Of a stretch of DNA of 64,000 bases, positions 21,268 to 30,687 are shown piece by piece. Within the stretch, counting starts at the first letter, position 1. Every line of letters starts with the position of its first letter. This stretch comes from Desulfatiglandales bacterium. Lineage in GTDB: Bacteria > Desulfobacterota > DSM-4660 > Desulfatiglandales > Desulfatiglandaceae. Location: positions 4,960,001 through 5,024,000 of the forward strand of contig OY759599.1 in NCBI GenBank assembly GCA_963662465.1, in the 5' to 3' direction. The notes beneath the pieces are model-generated. The model was given only the letters and a program-made list of their open reading frames with translations. It was not told the DNA's origin and ran no database searches. The translations under genes were made by a program, and so were the position numbers.

Positions 21268-22806
21268 TCAGGAGTTTTCCGGATCAAAATCGAGCGGGCT
21301 TCTAATCTCTTTTGCCGGCATGCTTTTGATGACATGCGTATAGATCATCGTTGTCCGAACATCGCTATGCCCCAAGAGGTCTTGGATCGTTCGGATGTCG
21401 TAGTTGGCCTGCAACAGATGGGTCGCAAAACTGTGGCGAAAAGTATGCGCGGTAACGCGTTTATACAGTTTTGCCTTTCGTACGGCATCCCTGATGGCGC
21501 GTTGCACATGACTTTCATGGATATGATATCTTTTTTTTTCTCCCGTGTCCCTAACGGTGGTAAGGGAAAGGCCGGGGAAAACCCATTGCCAAGCCAATTC
21601 TTTGGCCGCATTTTTATATTTTTTATCCAACCGCCCCTTTAAGAAGGCGCCGGCGTACCCGACATTCAAATCCTTTTCATGCAAATCGGCGGCCACATCG
21701 AATTGCATACGGATTTCCGGTATGACCGTTTCCGGCAAAGGGACGGAGCGGTCTTTTTTTCCTTTACCGTCATGTACGGTCAGCATACAACCCTCGAGGT
21801 CGAAATCAGCAAGGCGAAGGTTGAGACATTCAAACAATCGTAATCCACAACCGTAGAGCAATTTCACGATGAGGTCATACGGATGGGAAAGATGCGTCAA
21901 AACCAGATCAATTTCCCGCCTCGACAACACCACCGGCCTATACGGTTTCTGCTTTGCTCTGACAACGTTCTTTATGTCGCCAGGTTCCCGTTTCATAACA
22001 TGACGGAAAAAAAACAACAAGGCATTGAATGCTTGATTCTGAGTTGAAGCGGAGACCTTTCTTTTCACAGCCAGAAATGTCAAAAAGGCTTTGTAATCTT
22101 CGTCGGTGACCGCTGCCAACGTTTTGGATTTGGTGAAGACCTGAAACTTGCGGAGCCACATTGAATAGCTCTTCAATGTCTTGGGAGAGTACTGCAGAAC
22201 CATGATTTCATCACGGAGGCCATCAAAGGCGAATTTCCAGCTTGTGCCGATTTCAACCGGTTGATCTGATGTTTGCCGTTTATTGCAAATAGTTTTGTCA
22301 AAAAACCCAGAAGGTTTTCGATCCGCCTCTTGACAGGTAGTTTTCGATATCTCCTCTGCGAATTTTTGGTCCCCGAAACCCTGACAACCCGTCCGGGAGG
22401 GCGGGACGTCCACAGGCCCGGCTTGAACGGCATTTGAACGTTTCGCGGCGGACGCGGCAAAAACAGTTGTATCGTTATCTGGAAAGATCTCGGCCTTTTT
22501 GACGGACGTATTCTTTCGAATTGTCACATATTCGGCAACCGAGGGCCTTTCTTTGACGGTTTCATAATACAAAGAAACGGCATCCGAGGCTTGTCTGATT
22601 TGATAATCTTTCTGTTTTTTCTGATGGCGTTTTTCGATAAAATGACTGAGGCTTTCATGTTTTGAGACCGGATGATAATATTTTTGGCAAAAATCCCAGT
22701 AAAATCGAAGCCATTTTTTGTAATATGCCTGAAATCGCTTTTAAACGGGTTTCCTATCCAGAAAATGCTGAAAACGCGCTATGATGTCTGGCGGAACTGG
22801 AATCAT
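21268..22806 (-). pseudogene. intI: Long-form integron integrase with an in-frame TAA at codon 22; a TTG-started 434-aa product remains possible
   Basis: LYGCGLR, GKGKKDR, integron-specific insertion KKYKNAAKELAWQWVFP, HTFRHSFATHLL, LGHSDVRTTMIYTH. The upstream frame reads MIPVPP...RKPV*KRFQAYYKKWLRFYWDFC in frame after a GGAGG RBS. Confidence 0.85.
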
Positions 22807-23264: not shown

Positions 23265-23326
23265 TGTCGGATAACATGCAGAAACGGATATTTGATGACA
23301 AAAAAAACCGTATAATCACTGGTTCG
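23265..23326 (+). other. Putative integron attI site (core GTT at 23322)
   Basis: Lies between divergent intI and the first cassette; CGTATAATCACTG-GTT. Confidence 0.55.
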
Positions 23327-23943
23327 TTGCGACACGAAGTCGCTTTAAATATATGTTTTCACAGAAGAATCGTGGAAACCCGGTGTTCCGCCACCGGCAT
23401 CCTAGGGAGGCATGCTGCCGTTGCGCTGATGACGGGGTGTGAAGCCCTCCCGACAATGTACCGAGGACCTTTGAAGTTGGAAAGTCGGGACAGAAAGCGT
23501 GAGTGGACTGTTCCTCTGGAAGCCTCATCCGGATTAGGGCTGGGATTGACTGATATGGTCAGTATATTCAAACACCTGCAGTATCGTAAACAGCAACAAG
23601 CCAAAGAGGCCGATAGGCTTGGACCAAACGGTGTGCGGCCAGGTCGGGAGTCTCGAACGTACGCCCGGCGCGGATGTTGTGCCGCCGGTATAGGGGGTGG
23701 ACCTAAGTCAGTTAACAGTATTTATTGCGGAACGTGGTAAGCTCGTAACATCGCCATAAAGTTTTGTGGCAAGCCAACCGTGAGGCAGGCCGTTGGTGTT
23801 GCGGGTGCAAGACGCCTTACCAAGCCAATGCCCTCCTGTAATGGGTGGAATACCGAGTTATCTCCGGCCCGAAAGGGAGCTGAATTTTGGCGGGTGCTCA
23901 TGCGTGAGATAATTTGAAGAACCTTCTGATGGGAGAATAGCAA

Positions 23944-24065
23944 ATGACGGTCTTCGTGACTGGTGCACTTCCACAACAAGCTCCAAACTGGCAACTCATT
24001 AATTGGGATGTCGTCAAGAGTAACGTGAAAAAGGCTTCAAATGCGTATTGCGCAGGCGGTTAACA
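23944..24065 (+). pseudogene. N-terminal remnant of the intron reverse transcriptase
   Basis: MTVFVTGALPQQAPNWQLINWDVVKSNVK, frameshift, then RLQMRIAQAV, joined almost directly to domain V. Confidence 0.75.
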
Positions 24066-24178
24066 ACCGCCGGACTCTTCTGATGAGAAAGGGTCTTACT
24101 GAGGGCTTGAGCCGTATGCTGGGAAACTCGCGTCTACGGTTCTGAGGGTAATAGCGGCATAATACACACCTCCGTACG

Positions 24179-26272
24179 TTATTGAAAATTAAAGACTTGT
24201 TGTTTTGAGTTTCTTGAAAGCGGGCTCTTTGGAAGCCCGGAATGAGCTGCCTTTTTTATCACTTCAGATTCAAGGTCCTTTTTTGAAATGATCCATGGAG
24301 CACCGGAACATACTCGCTTGGCGGGTAGAATCTCATGTTGTATAAGTCTCCAAACTTTGGTGCTGCCAATACCCAGCCTTTCGCTTGCTTCAGCTACCGT
24401 ATATTCTTCTCGTCGCTGCCTCTCTCCTTCATGATATACAGGGATATTATGCCTATTTCGAAATGAACGCAACCTTACCGGATTCCAGGTATATCCCTTT
24501 GTAGTCTTTGTACCCACACGGTTGAGAAAGGCCACGATGTGTTTATCAGGCATAATTCTAGCCAAATCGGATATTATCTTTTTTGTATCAACATCGGTTT
24601 TCAATGGGTAACTGGAAGACTTATTCTTCAATACCTCCAATTCCGTATGCTCACCCCCTTCCCAGTGAATGATTAATTTGATCTTTTGATCTTCCAAATA
24701 AACAACGATCTCTTTGATAACCGTCCGGATTATACGCTTCTTTAAATCCAAAGAGCAAAACGGATCATTCCATACACGAGGTAAATCTTTTGATAGATCT
24801 CTGATCTCAGTCTCCTCCTCAGGGGAAAGCGAAGGGGTGTTCGATCCCATGGCGTCAACCTCATTCTCCAATCTTGCTACCTTAACAAGAGCGTCATTCC
24901 AATCCTTCTCCAATGTAGATGCTACCAAACGATTATCAGGGTCTACTGCATTGTATTGACGTTTTGCCCGTAAAGCTTCATAACGCGCTTGTTCCAACTC
25001 CAGTTCCCGTTGCCGTTTCACTGAATCCGATTCATGGTTGATTTTCTTTATCGCCTCTAAAGAAGCTTCTAATCCTATCGGTGATAATACTTTCAAAAGA
25101 AAATCCGTAACAGCCCGGTCAACACGAAATCCACCAAATGATATACACGCCTTTCCTGTCTCGGTACCTCGTTTGCGGCTACACTCATAACGTTTATGAG
25201 TTCCATTACGGCCTTGGTATCGTACAATTAACTTTCTGCCGCAATGACCGCATCTTAACAAACCTCCAAGCAATGCCTTTCCTCCGCGAACAGATCCTCT
25301 CACCACCGGCCTTTTCTTATTTGTATTTTGAGTTAGTATCTCCATGTTATACTGGTACTCTTCCCATGTGATGTAACCTTCATGGTGATCCAATATTAAA
25401 ACGTCCCAATCCTTTTGTTCCTTACGAATACCCTTCCTCAGTCGCTTGCGCCCATTTTCAAAAGTTACCTCTGTTTTAGTCCGGCCATAGACGTAGGCGC
25501 CGGCGTAAATTGGGTTGTTCACTATATGCGACAAGGTATGAGCAGACGGTAGTTTCCACTCTATCCTACGTTCCCCTTTACCGCTGGAAACAACAGCAAT
25601 CTCAATCTGTTCATCTAAAAACCAATGATACACCCGACGAAGAGTACCATATTCCTTGAATTTCGTGAATACCAAATCAATGACTTCTTGAATTCGTTTG
25701 TCAGGATTCTTTTTCAGCTTATTATCCCTAGTCTTTATATAGGCTGCCGGTACAGTAAGATATAATTCTCCCCGCTTCGCTTTTTGTTGTATTGCCGCCT
25801 GAGAACGCTCCTTTAATAGGCTCAATTCCATTGCACTCATTTCTCCCTTTAAGCCCAGGAGCAAACGATCATTTGACACGTTTAGGTCATAAACAGCTCC
25901 TTGATCTACAAGAACCGTTTTTTTAAGTGCACAGATCTCAAGCAACGTATGCCACTCTCGACCGTTGCGGGCCAACCTCGATGATTCAATCGAGAAAATA
26001 CCCCCTATTCTTCCTTCACACACAGATGAAAGAAGATTCTGGAATCCTTTTCTGTCAACGCATCCCGATGCAGTTATTCCCAAATCACTATCTATCATCC
26101 ATATGTTTTTCTCGTTCCATCCTAATTCTTTTGCCCTTTCTACCAAGCCATATTGTAAAAGTTGGCTTTCACGATGCTGTAGAACTTGGCCCGGTGTTGA
26201 CTGACGGATATATATACATGCTTCCCGACTAATATGTTCAGCATTGATTTTATTGCTCATGCTCATTTCCAC
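24179..26272 (-). CDS. Large serine recombinase (resolvase, recombinase, Zn-ribbon and C-terminal HTH domains)
   Basis: YIRQS catalytic Ser, SRLARN, NPIYAGAY, LRCGHCG, VDPDNRLVA. Confidence 0.93.
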   Translation of the reverse strand: MEMSMSNKINAEHISREACIYIRQSTPGQVLQHRESQLLQYGLVERAKELGWNEKNIWMIDSDLGITASGCVDRKGFQNLLSSVCEGRIGGIFSIESSRLARNGREWHTLLEICALKKTVLVDQGAVYDLNVSNDRLLLGLKGEMSAMELSLLKERSQAAIQQKAKRGELYLTVPAAYIKTRDNKLKKNPDKRIQEVIDLVFTKFKEYGTLRRVYHWFLDEQIEIAVVSSGKGERRIEWKLPSAHTLSHIVNNPIYAGAYVYGRTKTEVTFENGRKRLRKGIRKEQKDWDVLILDHHEGYITWEEYQYNMEILTQNTNKKRPVVRGSVRGGKALLGGLLRCGHCGRKLIVRYQGRNGTHKRYECSRKRGTETGKACISFGGFRVDRAVTDFLLKVLSPIGLEASLEAIKKINHESDSVKRQRELELEQARYEALRAKRQYNAVDPDNRLVASTLEKDWNDALVKVARLENEVDAMGSNTPSLSPEEETEIRDLSKDLPRVWNDPFCSLDLKKRIIRTVIKEIVVYLEDQKIKLIIHWEGGEHTELEVLKNKSSSYPLKTDVDTKKIISDLARIMPDKHIVAFLNRVGTKTTKGYTWNPVRLRSFRNRHNIPVYHEGERQRREEYTVAEASERLGIGSTKVWRLIQHEILPAKRVCSGAPWIISKKDLESEVIKKAAHSGLPKSPLSRNSKQQVFNFQ

Positions 26273-26283
26273 CTTTCTTTTCT

Positions 26284-26841
26284 CGAAATGTCAACCGAAA
26301 ATTGACCTCTTGCGACAACCGAATTTTGACCCCCATATGAGTAATTGTAAGCTGCGACGAGGTCATAGAAGGCTCCGGTGGCTCCTGCCGAAATATCCAT
26401 TAAAAGAGCGACCATAACCGCACCTTAGTCAGCTTCCGACCAGATAATCATCTGGTAAGTCGAGAAAACCCTTTTTCGTCGCTAATTCGAGTTCAATCAA
26501 ATACCCTATCTCGCCTTTCATTTTGATCTGTGAAACCATCCACTTCCGTAACCGAATCGTGACGGGGATACGCCTCAGATGTTCAGGACTCCTTTTTCGA
26601 CCAGCGCCTTTTCGACTCCCACCTCTCATTTTCATCGCTCCTTTTCACCTTCAAATTCGTCCAATATTTTTGAATACCGTGTACGTTTTTCAGTTAAACA
26701 CCTATTTCTATCGGAAAATAAGCTATTTATGATTTATCGTTACGATTTTTCTGAGTCGGATTAAGCTGCTTGCTTCAACAACTCCAGTCTCTTGACTGCT
26801 TCCAATATCAGACCGCGATTTTACGTTAGTGAAACTACTTC
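26284..26841. mobile_element. 558-bp secondary insertion with an IS21-like end
   Basis: Flanked by TCTTTTCT direct repeats (26276-83, 26842-49); tandem CAACCGAA(A/T)(A/T)TTGACC repeats at the left end. Confidence 0.5.
26429..26635 (-). CDS. Small basic putative DNA-binding protein
   Basis: RGGSRKGAGRK motif followed by RHH-like VTIRL; RBS AAGGAG. Confidence 0.6.
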   Translation of the reverse strand: MKMRGGSRKGAGRKRSPEHLRRIPVTIRLRKWMVSQIKMKGEIGYLIELELATKKGFLDLPDDYLVGS

Positions 26842-26996
26842 TCTTTTCTATTTCTGTTACCCTCAGAATTTTGCCAGAAACCTGACAGAAGCTCTGCAAG
26901 GAAATCAATCAATCTATTTCGTGTTTCTATTGGAATTTCGATCGGTGATGGTAAATAATCCCAAAGCCGAAGTTGATGATATTTTTGTTTCGTCAT
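26835..26996 (-). CDS. Small hypothetical protein of the LSR element
   Basis: MTKQKYHQLRLWDYLP...; RBS GGAGG; lies between the DUF5372-like gene and the LSR. Confidence 0.5.
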   Translation of the reverse strand: MTKQKYHQLRLWDYLPSPIEIPIETRNRLIDFLAELLSGFWQNSEGNRNRKEK

Positions 26997-27304
26997 CTTT
27001 CCTCCTTGTTTTCGAATTGACTTCATCAGGAGGAAACGGTATTTTTCTATTCACTATTAAGCAATATAAATTCTTAAGCGCCCTGATTTCGATAGCGGGT
27101 TTTGAGCCGAGGGATATCTTTTCATACTTTGGATTGGTCATCCACGCAGGTATCAATTCATGGCGACCATCAGGTTTCTTTGTTACAAAACAAGTTTCTC
27201 CACGATGGTTTCTGGTACCTACCACATAAATTTCTTCACCGGTTCTTGGGTGAAAGGGGTAATATACCCGAGTTATAAACTGGTTTTGATGGGCATTATA
27301 TAGT
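26914..27304 (-). CDS. DUF5372-like protein of the LSR element (start uncertain, frame crosses the element end)
   Basis: YPFHPRTG...DGRHELIPAWMT motif. Confidence 0.65.
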
Positions 27305-27370
27305 GGTTCTGAGGGGGCTTGGGGATGGCAACATCCCCTGGCTACCCGGCTTTTCTCAATCAAAAACGGC

Positions 27371-27400
27371 TTGTCTCAAAGCCACCGTCTCAGGTATAAT
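27371..27400 (+). promoter_or_regulatory. Cassette-borne sigma70 promoter for the TA pair
   Basis: TTGTCT-18 bp-TATAAT. Confidence 0.6.
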
Positions 27401-27441
27401 GAGGGGGTGTTCTTTTACAAATAACTTTGGATGATTAATCG

Positions 27442-27732
27442 ATGAGTATTCAATTTGAATGGGACAAAAATAAAGCGAAAACGAATCTCAAGAAACACAA
27501 AGTTAGTTTTGATGAAGCAAGTACTGTTTTCAGTGACCCATTAGCTTTGATATTTGATGATGAAGAACACTCTACGTCAGAAGAGTTACGTGAAATCATC
27601 ATCGGAAATTCTGAGAAAAGACGACTGTTATTGACCAGTTTCACAGAACGACTAGAAGATATTGTGCGGATAATTAGCTCACGTTTAGCGACAAACCATG
27701 AACGAAAGGATTATGAAGAAAATGCCTACTAA
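27442..27732 (+). CDS. brnT: BrnT family toxin (integron cassette)
   Basis: FEWDKNKAKTNLKKHKVSFDEA...RIISSRLATNHER. Confidence 0.92.
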   Translation: MSIQFEWDKNKAKTNLKKHKVSFDEASTVFSDPLALIFDDEEHSTSEELREIIIGNSEKRRLLLTSFTERLEDIVRIISSRLATNHERKDYEENAY

Positions 27733-27985
27733 TTCAGCAATTGACGATTTAAAACCAGAATATAAGTTTGATTATAGTAAAGCACGTCCGAATCGTTTTG
27801 CTAAACGAGTCACTGAGGATAGTGTTATTGTGGTGCTTGACCCTGATGTAGCACAGGTTTTTACTTCTGCGGAGGCAGTCAATGCTGTTTTACGAGCGCT
27901 CATTCAAAACATGCCTAATGTTACTATTCCAGCACAAGTTACAGAGGTTCTCACGGCAAACAAACATCATGGTTCAATCCGCTAA
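27713..27985 (+). CDS. BrnA-like antitoxin
   Basis: LKPEYKFDYSKARPNRFA, VVLDPDVAQVF; overlaps the toxin; stop codon lies within attC R''. Confidence 0.8.
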   Translation: MKKMPTNSAIDDLKPEYKFDYSKARPNRFAKRVTEDSVIVVLDPDVAQVFTSAEAVNAVLRALIQNMPNVTIPAQVTEVLTANKHHGSIR

Positions 27986-28673
27986 CCAAGCGCTCCTCGC
28001 GCCGAGGTAAGCCCGAAACCTTGGGAACCCGCGTAAATCGGGATGAAATTGGTTATTGTTATCCAGTGGGTGATCGCGGAAAGCGAAAGTCCCACCCGAG
28101 CAGAGGTTAGCCACCAGCTCGGTAGTGAAGTCCACGTGCAAACCGGGTAACCGGCGTACGGAGCTGGACGGAACGAGAATCCAGGCTGCGTATTGAGCCC
28201 CGAAAAATGTATAGTTGTGGTCATTGGATAACCCTGTGAAATCAGGGGAACGCCGACGCTTTGGAGCAAGCGGAAGACAGCAGACCTTGATGCGCCATGG
28301 CGAGTGTTGAGGTTGCCACCGGGGTCTTAGACCAGGGCATGGATTCAAATGGATAGCTCGGGAACTCGGGAGAACCAAAAGTTTCCTTGTTTAGAGACCC
28401 GGAAGATGAGGGGCGCCGGGAGATTAAGAGCCCTGGCGTTTGCGGGCTGCTTTCACCTGCAAATGAGTCGCAAGAAACACAAAGAAAGAAAGCAGGCAGG
28501 GTATCAGGTGTGGACAGCGAAAAGCGAACGTGCCTGAGAGGGACTTTTGGTAGTCTTAGCGGAACATAGTACCGATGGCGCCGAGGATGGTGCTGGGAAG
28601 GTGGGGAAGTGGCGCCCAAGCGACCCACTGTAGGGAAGGTGAAGCAGGGTATAACGTTTTTCTGATAGGAACT

Positions 28674-30374
28674 ATGGAAGACACTCAGAGGTCACAACCC
28701 ATATCAATGGAAAATCAGGAAATTGCGGAGCAGGTTGCCCAGAAGTCCGAAGAACCGAGTACACATGGTCTCCCCGTACTGGTCAGTGAATCAAGTCTTG
28801 CCCGGGTAGCAATACGGGGGATGGCCGATTCGCAAACGGTGTTCTCATCACTTGCGCATTGGACCGACTTTGATTTATTGAAAAAGTCATTCAAGGCATT
28901 GAGTAAGAATGAGTCAACCGGAGTTGATAGGATAACGGCGAAGGACTATGCTGTCGATCTTAATGAAAACCTCTATAAACTGTACGAACGGCTGCAAAGA
29001 GGGCAGTACGTTGCATCTCCGGTCAAGCGCATATGGGTGGACAAGGAAGGCGGTAAAAAGAGACCGATAGGGATTCCGGCGTTGGAGGACAAGATTGTCC
29101 AGAAAGCGGTGGCGACTTTGCTGGGGCTGGCTTACGAACCCTTGTTTTATGAAGTTTCCCATGGATTTCGGGAAGGTCACAGTCAACACCTGGCGCTGAA
29201 AGAACTTCGTGAAAAGTGTGCCGGTTTGAACATAAACTGGATTTTGAGCGCGGATATTACGGGACTATTTGACAATATAGATCACTCATTATTACGAGAA
29301 ATACTGCGTAAAAGGGTGAATGATGGCGGCATCCTGCGGCTAATCGGCAAGTGGTTGAACGCCGGGGTCGTGGAGGGTGACGAAACCATATACCCTGAGA
29401 AAGGAACGCCTCAAGGCGGGTTATGCAAAGCTTTGCATAACCCGCCTTATGCCAAGTTGCCGATTATGCAAAGTAAACCGCTAAAGCTACCAGATTTCCA
29501 ACACCTTCACTGAGTTTACTTTGCATAATATCACGGGTATCTCAAACTTGAAATCCAATTAAACGATGCAGCATCCTTGGTTTATTTTGGATAAAATGAT
29601 CTGGTTTTTTTCCGACAAATGATTTTGTGAGCTTTTCGCTCAGTCATCATTAGCAAAGATTATGCTAAGTAAATCAAAAAGAAACCCTTGAATTCCAATG
29701 CGTTTTATGGCTTACTTTGCATAATTACTTTCTTTGCATAAGGCGGCGTCATTTCACCGGTGCTGAGTAATATATTTTTGCACGAGGTGCTGGACGGCTG
29801 GTTTGTCAAAGAAGTTGAACCGAGGCTGAAGGGGAAGTGTTTTTTGGTCCGCTTTGCGGATGATTTCATAATCGGGTTTCAATTGAAGTCTGATGCTGAA
29901 CGGTTGATGGCAGTTTTGCCCAAGCGTTTTGAGAAATACAAGCTAAGCCTTCACCCGGGAAAGACCAGATTGATAGCCTTTGGAAGGCCAATGGCCGGTG
30001 CAAAGCGTGAGACCTTTGATTTCTTAGGTTTTACCTACTACTGGGGCAGGTCCTTAAAGGGGCGGTGGGTGATTAAGAAGAAGACGGCTGGTAAGCGTTT
30101 AAGGCGTTTTCTGAGTATGACGTGGAGTTGGTGTAAGGAGAGCCGCCATGATCCCATGAAGGAGCAGCATGAGATTTTATGCAGCAAACTTCGGGGGTTC
30201 TATCAATATTTTGGTGTACGCTCGAACTACAAAGCACTTGAAGTGGCGTATGAATACGCGATGAAGGCCTGGCGTTACTGGCTAAGCCGGAGGAGTTCCG
30301 ACGGCCTGGTGTTGTTTGCAGACCTGCAAAGGAGCCACCCACTGCCAATTCCGAAAATAGTCCACGGATTCTGA
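28674..30374 (+). pseudogene. ltrA: Group II intron reverse transcriptase/maturase disrupted at PQGG
   Basis: RPIGIPALEDK, SHGFR, GTPQGG|VISPVLSN, RFADD, FDFLGF. Removing 29420-29746 restores a 457-aa ORF with no endonuclease domain. Confidence 0.92.
29420..29746. mobile_element. Gene-less 327-bp element with TTATGC/GCATAA arms (RIT-like miniature element)
   Basis: Symmetric TTATGC (29447, 29464, 29660) and GCATAA (29523, 29719, 29736) sites; 36-bp perfect palindrome 29413-29448; AAGGCGG at both junctions. Confidence 0.8.
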
Positions 30375-30687
30375 AACCACTGGGGCAGCAAAGTTATTCG
30401 CCGGTCGGGGTGTCGCCTGGCTGGTTGATGGTCTGGTAAAAAGGACCTGAACCGAGAAACCGGATGAGGGAAATCTTCACGTCCGAATCTGCGGGGGGAG
30501 CGCCGGGCAACCGGTGCTTCTACCCGGAACCAGACGCCTGATACTTGGGCGGTCCTAGCGAGGGGGGCCGGAGGAGGCGCTGGTGAGCTTGTCGTTCCTA
30601 TAATGCACATCCTTTCGCTTGACTCCTTTGGAGATTTTTTCTAATCTCATGCTACAATCTACGCTTTTGCAAGGGGGGAATCGGATC

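Follow-up and report, generated by a model that had tools for sequence, protein, structure and literature searches.

Within a 64,000-nt window from a Desulfatiglandales bacterium (contig OY759599.1, positions 4,960,001 to 5,024,000; window positions below count from its first letter), a gene for a large serine recombinase (LSR) lies inside a group II intron. The gene belongs to a unit of about 3.17 kb that parts intron domain V (DV) from domain VI (DVI). Both ends of this unit carry the 11-mer GGTTCTGAGGG, at 24138-24148 and 27305-27315, and every gene that it encloses is encoded by the minus strand. The left 11-mer consists of the last five bases of DV, the linker, and the first Gs of DVI. 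An earlier reading of the letters alone (the original prediction) described an 11-bp repeat around an intact 697-residue LSR, and proposed that the enzyme uses the intron DV/DVI junction as its attB. The repeat, the recombinase domains, and the open reading frame (ORF) were all found. We conclude that the unit is very probably an integrative element resembling an insertion sequence (IS), moved by its LSR, for which attB is the DNA encoding the DV/DVI junction of group II introns.

The host intron matches the Rfam model RF02012 (group-II-D1D4-7) at 23379-23540, with 93.8 bits against a cut-off of 34. Its start, at 23326, is placed by a 99% identical sister intron in the same genome; its 3' end is set by the point, directly 3' of ...CCCGGC, at which the flanks of the element copies part ways. 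In the split state, DV is matched by RF00029 at 24107-24177 with 37.1 bits (DV helix, 24109-24142), compared with 52.6-67.5 bits for unsplit sister DV-DVI junctions in this genome. The two flanks, joined in silico, fold as DV, a 3-nt linker, and DVI. Removal of the unit would thus rejoin a normal DV-DVI, just as had been claimed.

The recombinase has the domain order of its class: residues 19-169 match PF00239 (Resolvase; E 7.3e-19); residues 195-315 match PF07508 (Recombinase; E 4.8e-13); and residues 334-377 match PF13408 (Zn_ribbon_recom; E 7e-8). The carboxyl terminus carries an extra Pfam HTH_17 domain. Within the YIRQST motif, which includes the nucleophilic serine, residues R23, S25, and T26 are invariant in all four aligned sequences. 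A putative coiled coil, recognized by eye, spans residues ~398-475 and contains the conserved YNAVDPDNRLVA. Among NCBIfam models, the XisF and Ccr matches fall far under their cut-offs.

Table 1. Features of the element, its host intron, and their surroundings (window positions).
Feature	Position	Strand	Remarks
Left copy of attL/attR identity block GGTTCTGAGGG	24138-24148	.	DV end, linker, DVI start
Mobile element body	24149-27304	-	3,156 bp; 3,167 bp counting one core copy
Start module of the split DUF5372-like gene	24149-24173	-	GGAGG 24173-24169, 5 nt behind LSR stop; ATG 24160-24158
LSR, 697 aa	24179-26272	-	Pfam Resolvase, Recombinase, Zn_ribbon_recom, HTH_17
Accessory ORF, 68 aa	26429-26635	-	no family (Pfam, NCBIfam)
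Conserved ORF, 53 aa	26835-26996	-	own AAGGAGG site; found by tblastn in 8 of 12 close loci
Body of the split DUF5372-like gene	26914-27315	-	no own start codon; first codons = core
Right copy of 11-bp identity block	27305-27315	.	exact repeat match
Host intron 5' part, domain I to DV and linker	23326-24148	+	ORF-less; remnant of reverse transcriptase start
Domain VI of host intron and intron 3' end	27313-27350	+	hairpin with bulged nucleotide
Integron integrase gene	21268-22572	-	upstream of intron; TIGR02249, 371.6 bits, cut-off 265
BrnT-toxin-like ORF and overlapping partner ORF	27442-27985		directly 3' of intron
Second group II intron, D1-D4	28086-28334		downstream
Second group II intron, DV-DVI	30455-30529		downstream

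The genome (8.16 Mb) contains seven copies of the element, designated A to G. Six are full and 99-100% identical, with the LSR frame open in each; the seventh, copy G, has its LSR gene broken by a 2,850-bp IS-like insert (G000:C1 3315896-3318745). (A second copy of that insert lies at G000:C1 2503313-2506162.) Left ends adjoin a DV 3' strand in six of the seven copies, and right ends adjoin a DVI-type hairpin in all seven. The 3' exon flanks are different at every copy. Three intron lineages serve as hosts: that of the window; a family that holds five of the seven copies, and of whose own seven members five are occupied; and a third, seen only at the right end of copy F. Across domains I-IV the intron of the window is only 66-79% identical to the other hosts, and its DV differs from theirs at many positions.

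An RF00029 scan of the genome returned 54 DV-DVI matches, and among these the occupied junctions are exclusively those with the exact 11-mer. The junction GGTTCTGAGGG occurs in eight copies, six of them occupied; the junction GGTTCgGAGGG occurs in 13 copies and GGTTCTtAGAGGG in 10, and none of these is occupied. The genome as a whole contains the 11-mer 21 times, against 3.8 expected: 12 of these are the ends of six element copies, and two are empty intron sites.

Relatives were sought in scans of species genomes and metagenomes (loci found there are denoted by L numbers). Twelve loci encode an LSR 70-84% identical in amino acid sequence, most of them on contigs of 2.3-3.8 kb, as expected because repeats collapse in assembly. 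The flanks of close homologues had been named as the place to look. To the left, DV is found at four of six readable loci (L027, L039, and L045 by Rfam; L042 by eye); to the right, a bulged DVI hairpin follows at three of four (L026, L028, and L044). The gene at the right boundary, discussed below, offers a second sample. Its body has 57 database homologues, of which 30 keep the amino-terminal anchor, the gene callers having read on into the flank. In 23 of these 30, the amino-terminal extension is an antisense DVI peptide. Four types of such extension occur, and each matches a DVI seen as DNA. (The homologue protein clusters overlap partly with the DNA loci, and the two samples are not fully independent.) One database protein, P0009, is 99% identical to the body of the window's split gene and carries another antisense-DVI extension, of the RVGQG type, like that of the empty site at 3354006. 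This suggests that the same element occupies an RVGQG-type intron in another sample.

Beyond the close relatives, the pattern fades. For distant LSRs (33-40% identical), an Rfam intron match was found at none of 16 loci, and none was found at L064 (42%) either; tblastn with the reverse transcriptase (RT) of the window gave two weak matches at the distant loci. The DV/DVI habit therefore seems confined to the close LSR clade. A conserved 26-nt left-end pattern was found in none of the other 208 genomes of the class, and a protein search of 400 other genomes of the phylum returned only two distant relatives of the LSR (38% and 42%); since repeats often go unassembled in metagenome-assembled genomes, neither result speaks for absence. 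At locus L065 (G384:C425 2470-4983), the LSR gene (38% identical, with one in-frame TAG) lies inside an intron; an intact DV-DVI stands 205 nt downstream of it on that strand, and the D1-D4 of another intron comes next.

Comparison of the att sites localizes the probable crossover. When aligned on conserved arm motifs, the attP sites of the window element, L039, L025, and L045 share the same 28-nt spacing. The block of identity between left and right junctions is 11 bp in the window, 6 bp in L039 (TCTGTG), and 5 bp in L045 (TGGGG). This variation in length points to identity between attP and attB rather than to duplication of a target. The three blocks overlap at one dinucleotide only, which reads AG in the window and L027, and TG in L039, L042, L045, and L025. 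From these alignments, the shared dinucleotide is most likely the crossover, namely AG of GGTTCTG-AG-GG in the window. The core of the element's attP mimics the DV/DVI junction, and the different cores of the relatives match the different introns in which those relatives reside. Near-identical copies in different introns, together with relatives whose cores are matched to their own hosts, support the proposal that this LSR uses intron DV/DVI as attB.

The element also contains a gene in two pieces. A frame that crosses the right end, noted in the original prediction, is open from 26914 to 27363 on the minus strand, and so extends past 27315. It has no start of its own before the conserved domain, and it passes through the core with the codons PSEP. 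The same PSEP codons are met at the left end, where a GGAGG is followed eight bases later by an ATG; in the integrated state this start module reads MPLLPSEP, and then meets a stop within DV. Joined through the core, as on an excised circle, the two pieces form one frame of 137 aa directly behind the LSR gene and on the same strand. Start and body join in frame in all four elements for which the comparison could be made (the window and L039; L025 and L045 via contig ends), and the start module is kept at eight of eight left ends (L043 with AGAGG). It had been proposed that the frame could be completed on the circle, and the sequences bear this out. The layout shows a gene cut by attP, which would be whole, and co-transcribed with the LSR gene, only on the circle, because ribosome-binding site and ATG follow the LSR stop whereas the body lies at the other end. 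A clear circle-form start was present in none of the 30 anchored database proteins. Upstream, the frame of the split gene runs on without a stop for 26-83 codons in several copies.

The family label for this protein stands in part. The match to DUF5372 (PF17342) is real: the best score is 20.6 bits (E 4.7e-4), and five of seven relatives match. All of these scores remain under the 25-bit gathering cut-off (20.3-20.6 for the protein of the window), so we call it only DUF5372-like. An AlphaFold2 model has a mean pLDDT of 60.6, with a core (residues 10-60) at 85-90 that forms a small barrel, followed by a helix. Foldseek returned no match in the PDB at E <= 0.001. A wide search with VIA-align gave a best Z of 4.5, for SH3/KOW/Tudor-like small barrels; these are generic, and no function is drawn from them.

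A model of the LSR with the DUF5372-like protein scored 0.64 in three runs, against 0.00 for each of three controls. Of 157 solved complexes, 116 attain this mark, as do 2 of 215 mismatched pairs, a calibration that is only rough for our own alignments. At least 50% of contacts are common to the runs, and the pLDDT of the partner is at least 57. Predicted contacts on the LSR are residues 337-347, in the zinc ribbon, along with residues 395-408 and 480-544, which by eye border the putative coiled coil and continue beyond it. According to PMC12286644, directionality factors bind integrase at the zinc-ribbon/coiled-coil junction. The DUF5372-like protein was earlier suggested to be such a factor, and the model, with its controls, would place it where known factors bind. 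By this prediction, it looks like a partner of the recombination directionality factor (RDF) type on the LSR zinc-ribbon/coiled-coil junction.

These observations suggest a mechanism. The LSR would pair attP of the excised circle with an intron junction, with strand exchange at the central dinucleotide, most likely AG (TG in relatives). The exchange would give one fixed orientation, antisense to the intron. A 3.2-kb insert that parts DV from DVI should stop splicing, and precise excision would restore the DV/DVI junction. For such an element, introns would be a safe, conserved, and self-spreading landing pad.

Several points weigh against this reading. The alignments behind the predicted complex are shallow (8 and 7 rows). 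By canonical logic, an RDF that only the circle can make would block reintegration, and could not initiate excision. The inverted symmetry of attP is no better than that of shuffles: its peak, 11 of 22 positions about the core AG, is equalled by 47% of them. (The imperfect inverted arms described in the original prediction are accordingly weak.) Among the relatives, L040 and L043 have no DV on their left, nor does L039 have a DVI hairpin on its right. (At L040, intron domains I-IV lie 240 nt from the element's left end.) In the genome itself, the left flank of copy F is not DV and lies in a repeated unit, and its right junction reads TG where AG is expected. Finally, five of the seven copies occupy one family of ~700-nt ORF-less introns, and some of these five could have spread as intron passengers.

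Copy F cannot be read as a single clean integration, which was rejected: its left junction lies inside a repeat whose other copies extend a further ~2.7 kb, as far as a DV/DVI junction. The simplest account is that the element integrated and a neighbouring stretch was then deleted, which leaves the missing T and the TG centre unaccounted for. The repeat (~963 nt or more) is present at G000:C1 6826403-6827369 and in some 16 further places. Twice it begins directly behind the 3' end of an intron, and it also forms an eight-copy array with 1,609-nt spacing (4413001-4425229).

Passenger spread, taken as the whole explanation, would mean that the element entered an intron once and was thereafter copied as cargo of a retrohoming intron, its recombinase not choosing introns at all. 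The five copies in the ~700-nt family do lie at five different sites, and the host introns are themselves mobile, with many genomic copies. We nevertheless consider this unlikely. Near-identical elements are found also in the intron of the window, so different from the other hosts, and beside the third type of DVI. Within the ~700-nt family, occupied copy B agrees at several single-nucleotide polymorphisms with the two empty copies, where it differs from C, D, E, and G. The 46 variable sites among the element copies fall in mosaic blocks that do not follow the intron grouping: one, for example, separates A-D from E-G, and another D and F from the rest. The relatives, for their part, have cores matched to their own, different host junctions. 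Moreover, a 3.2-kb insert between DV and DVI should disable reverse splicing as well as splicing, from what is generally known of group II intron catalysis.

Two other explanations fare worse. Low-specificity transposition, with the 11-mer a target-site duplication and its position in an intron a coincidence, would accommodate the three flanks that are not DV (copy F left, L040, and L043), yet is scarcely credible: the same 11-mer recurs at six copies, and 12 of its 21 genomic occurrences are element ends; the block differs in length among relatives; and DVI flanks occur in 23 of 30 homologues. Serine recombinases, moreover, make no target duplication (PMC11722253). Had homologues sat at unrelated sites, the repeat would have counted as such a chance duplication; the copies and relatives instead lie at DV/DVI of different introns. 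Alternatively, intron and recombinase element might form one unit in an IStron-like symbiosis, in which movement of the whole is the work of the recombinase, and its removal from transcripts that of the ribozyme. Among group I introns, chimeras of an intron and an IS are known (PMC4227781), and the distant LSR of L065, described above, is located in an intron with an intact DV-DVI downstream of it on that strand. We judge this very unlikely here. The identity blocks and the points of flank divergence lie inside the intron, and thus only the 3.2-kb unit is bounded by att sites; the same intron families are found without the element, and the outer ends are ordinary intron ends; and the genes of the element are antisense to the intron, whose DV it parts from DVI.

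The element as an LSR-driven visitor of DV/DVI junctions therefore remains the preferred reading, and the direction of its recombination can be considered on that basis. Since a canonical RDF restricted to the circle would work against reintegration and be unable to initiate excision, we favour a reversed logic, in which excision needs the LSR only and the partner assists the circle in integrating. This is our best guess, and a tentative one. Which way recombination runs would then be set by the element's own topology, the factor tipping it towards integration of the circular form. Alternatively, the partner may be an RDF of the canonical kind, with read-in from the flank providing its expression. 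With the reversed logic, the split gene might act as a self-resetting switch, which we regard as possible though doubtful: the partner gene would exist only on the circle, as the last gene in a ring-shaped operon, and would be dismantled by the integration that it promotes. If the partner does promote attP x attB recombination, the LSR alone would excise and the circle would make its own integration factor. This would allow cut-and-paste movement between intron cores without host input. A circle-only gene for an RDF-like partner would also give an element a simple means of telling its integrated state from its excised one.

The circular form was looked for directly. Element ends joined to each other occur at none of the seven copies in the assembly. 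Neither a circle joint nor an emptied site was found in Logan contigs of four runs over 23300-27500, contigs that drop rare forms and are uninformative either way. Two introns elsewhere in the genome combine the DV of one family with the DVI of another (G000:C1 2366487-2366562 and 3307323-3307399); one of them is the sister that shares 99% identity with the intron of the window, from which its DVI differs strongly. Such chimeras could arise by exchange at att sites between different element copies.

The remaining genes of the element are small. The 68-aa ORF was absent by tblastn from all related loci searched, and its region is missing in L025-type elements. For the 53-aa, 68-aa, and 50-aa ORFs and their relatives, Pfam gave nothing at E <= 1 except a chance match to ACT_5, and NCBIfam gave nothing. 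A scan of the element for promoters and terminators returned six promoter-like sites against 6.7 expected, and no usable promoter.

The surroundings add a further level. The host intron is preceded by an integron integrase gene and directly followed by a BrnT-toxin-like ORF with its overlapping partner, and the intron appears to stand at the start of an integron cassette array. The 5' flank contains a motif common to host introns. The locus may thus represent a third layer of nested parasitism: an integron platform; introns settled there; and a DNA element on the catalytic core of the intron. The second group II intron, further downstream, is interrupted in its own way: its RT gene is split, right after the codons for G-T-P-Q-G-G, by a geneless insert of ~327 nt (29420-29746) bounded by the direct repeat AAGGCGG.

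More generally, a serine integrase appears able to evolve the reading of DNA that encodes a conserved ribozyme core. If so, the family would offer a natural series in which the att cores of recombinases evolved in step with a readable RNA-gene target. Related attP/attB pairs with AG or TG centres could teach how LSR specificity shifts, and so be useful for integrase engineering. The insertion between DV and DVI would also be a natural, and possibly reversible, off-switch for an intron.

Full-text search, which does not cover subscription journals, found among the papers listed none on an LSR element in a group II intron, and no mention of DUF5372. Parallels exist nonetheless, and the closest are TnpX/TndX transposons and phage integrase-RDF pairs. 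Among more remote ones, the IS1111-attC group and the class C-attC introns target conserved repeats of other elements. They follow the same strategy as the element described here, that of settling in a conserved, multi-copy, harmless site of another element; the enzyme class and the target differ. In the virus SSV1, attP lies inside the gene for a tyrosine integrase, and integration splits that gene. Here too a gene of the element is split by integration and would be restored by excision, with the difference that SSV1 splits the integrase itself, whereas here it is an accessory gene, of which only the start module (four codons) and the core are parted from the rest.

Phage serine integrases and their factors (phiC31/gp3, Bxb1/gp47, and SPbeta SprA/SprB) have the same set of domains as the LSR, and the att sites described here fit their attP/attB logic without target duplication (PMC11722253). 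In phage integrase-RDF pairs, as predicted by the model here, a small partner sits at the zinc-ribbon/coiled-coil junction (PMC12286644 and PMC5814800). Unlike phage RDF genes, the partner gene here is split by attP, so that the integrated element could not produce the partner in the ordinary manner, the opposite of what is needed of an excision factor. Unlike phage integrases, too, the LSR has an extra carboxyl-terminal HTH_17 domain and belongs to a multi-copy, IS-like element.

The clostridial transposons Tn4451/Tn4453 (TnpX) and Tn5397 (TndX) are similarly small to mid-size, with an LSR as the sole mobility enzyme, a likeness of organization. These transposons excise as a circle and reinsert at a short core. 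Lyras and Rood reportedly found, in 2000, that the joint of the Tn4451 circle creates a tnpX promoter that is missing in the integrated form. In the element described here the joint would complete a coding frame with its ribosome site, and not a promoter. Unlike the TnpX/TndX transposons, it has no cargo resistance gene, and its target is the conserved ribozyme-coding junction of another mobile element.

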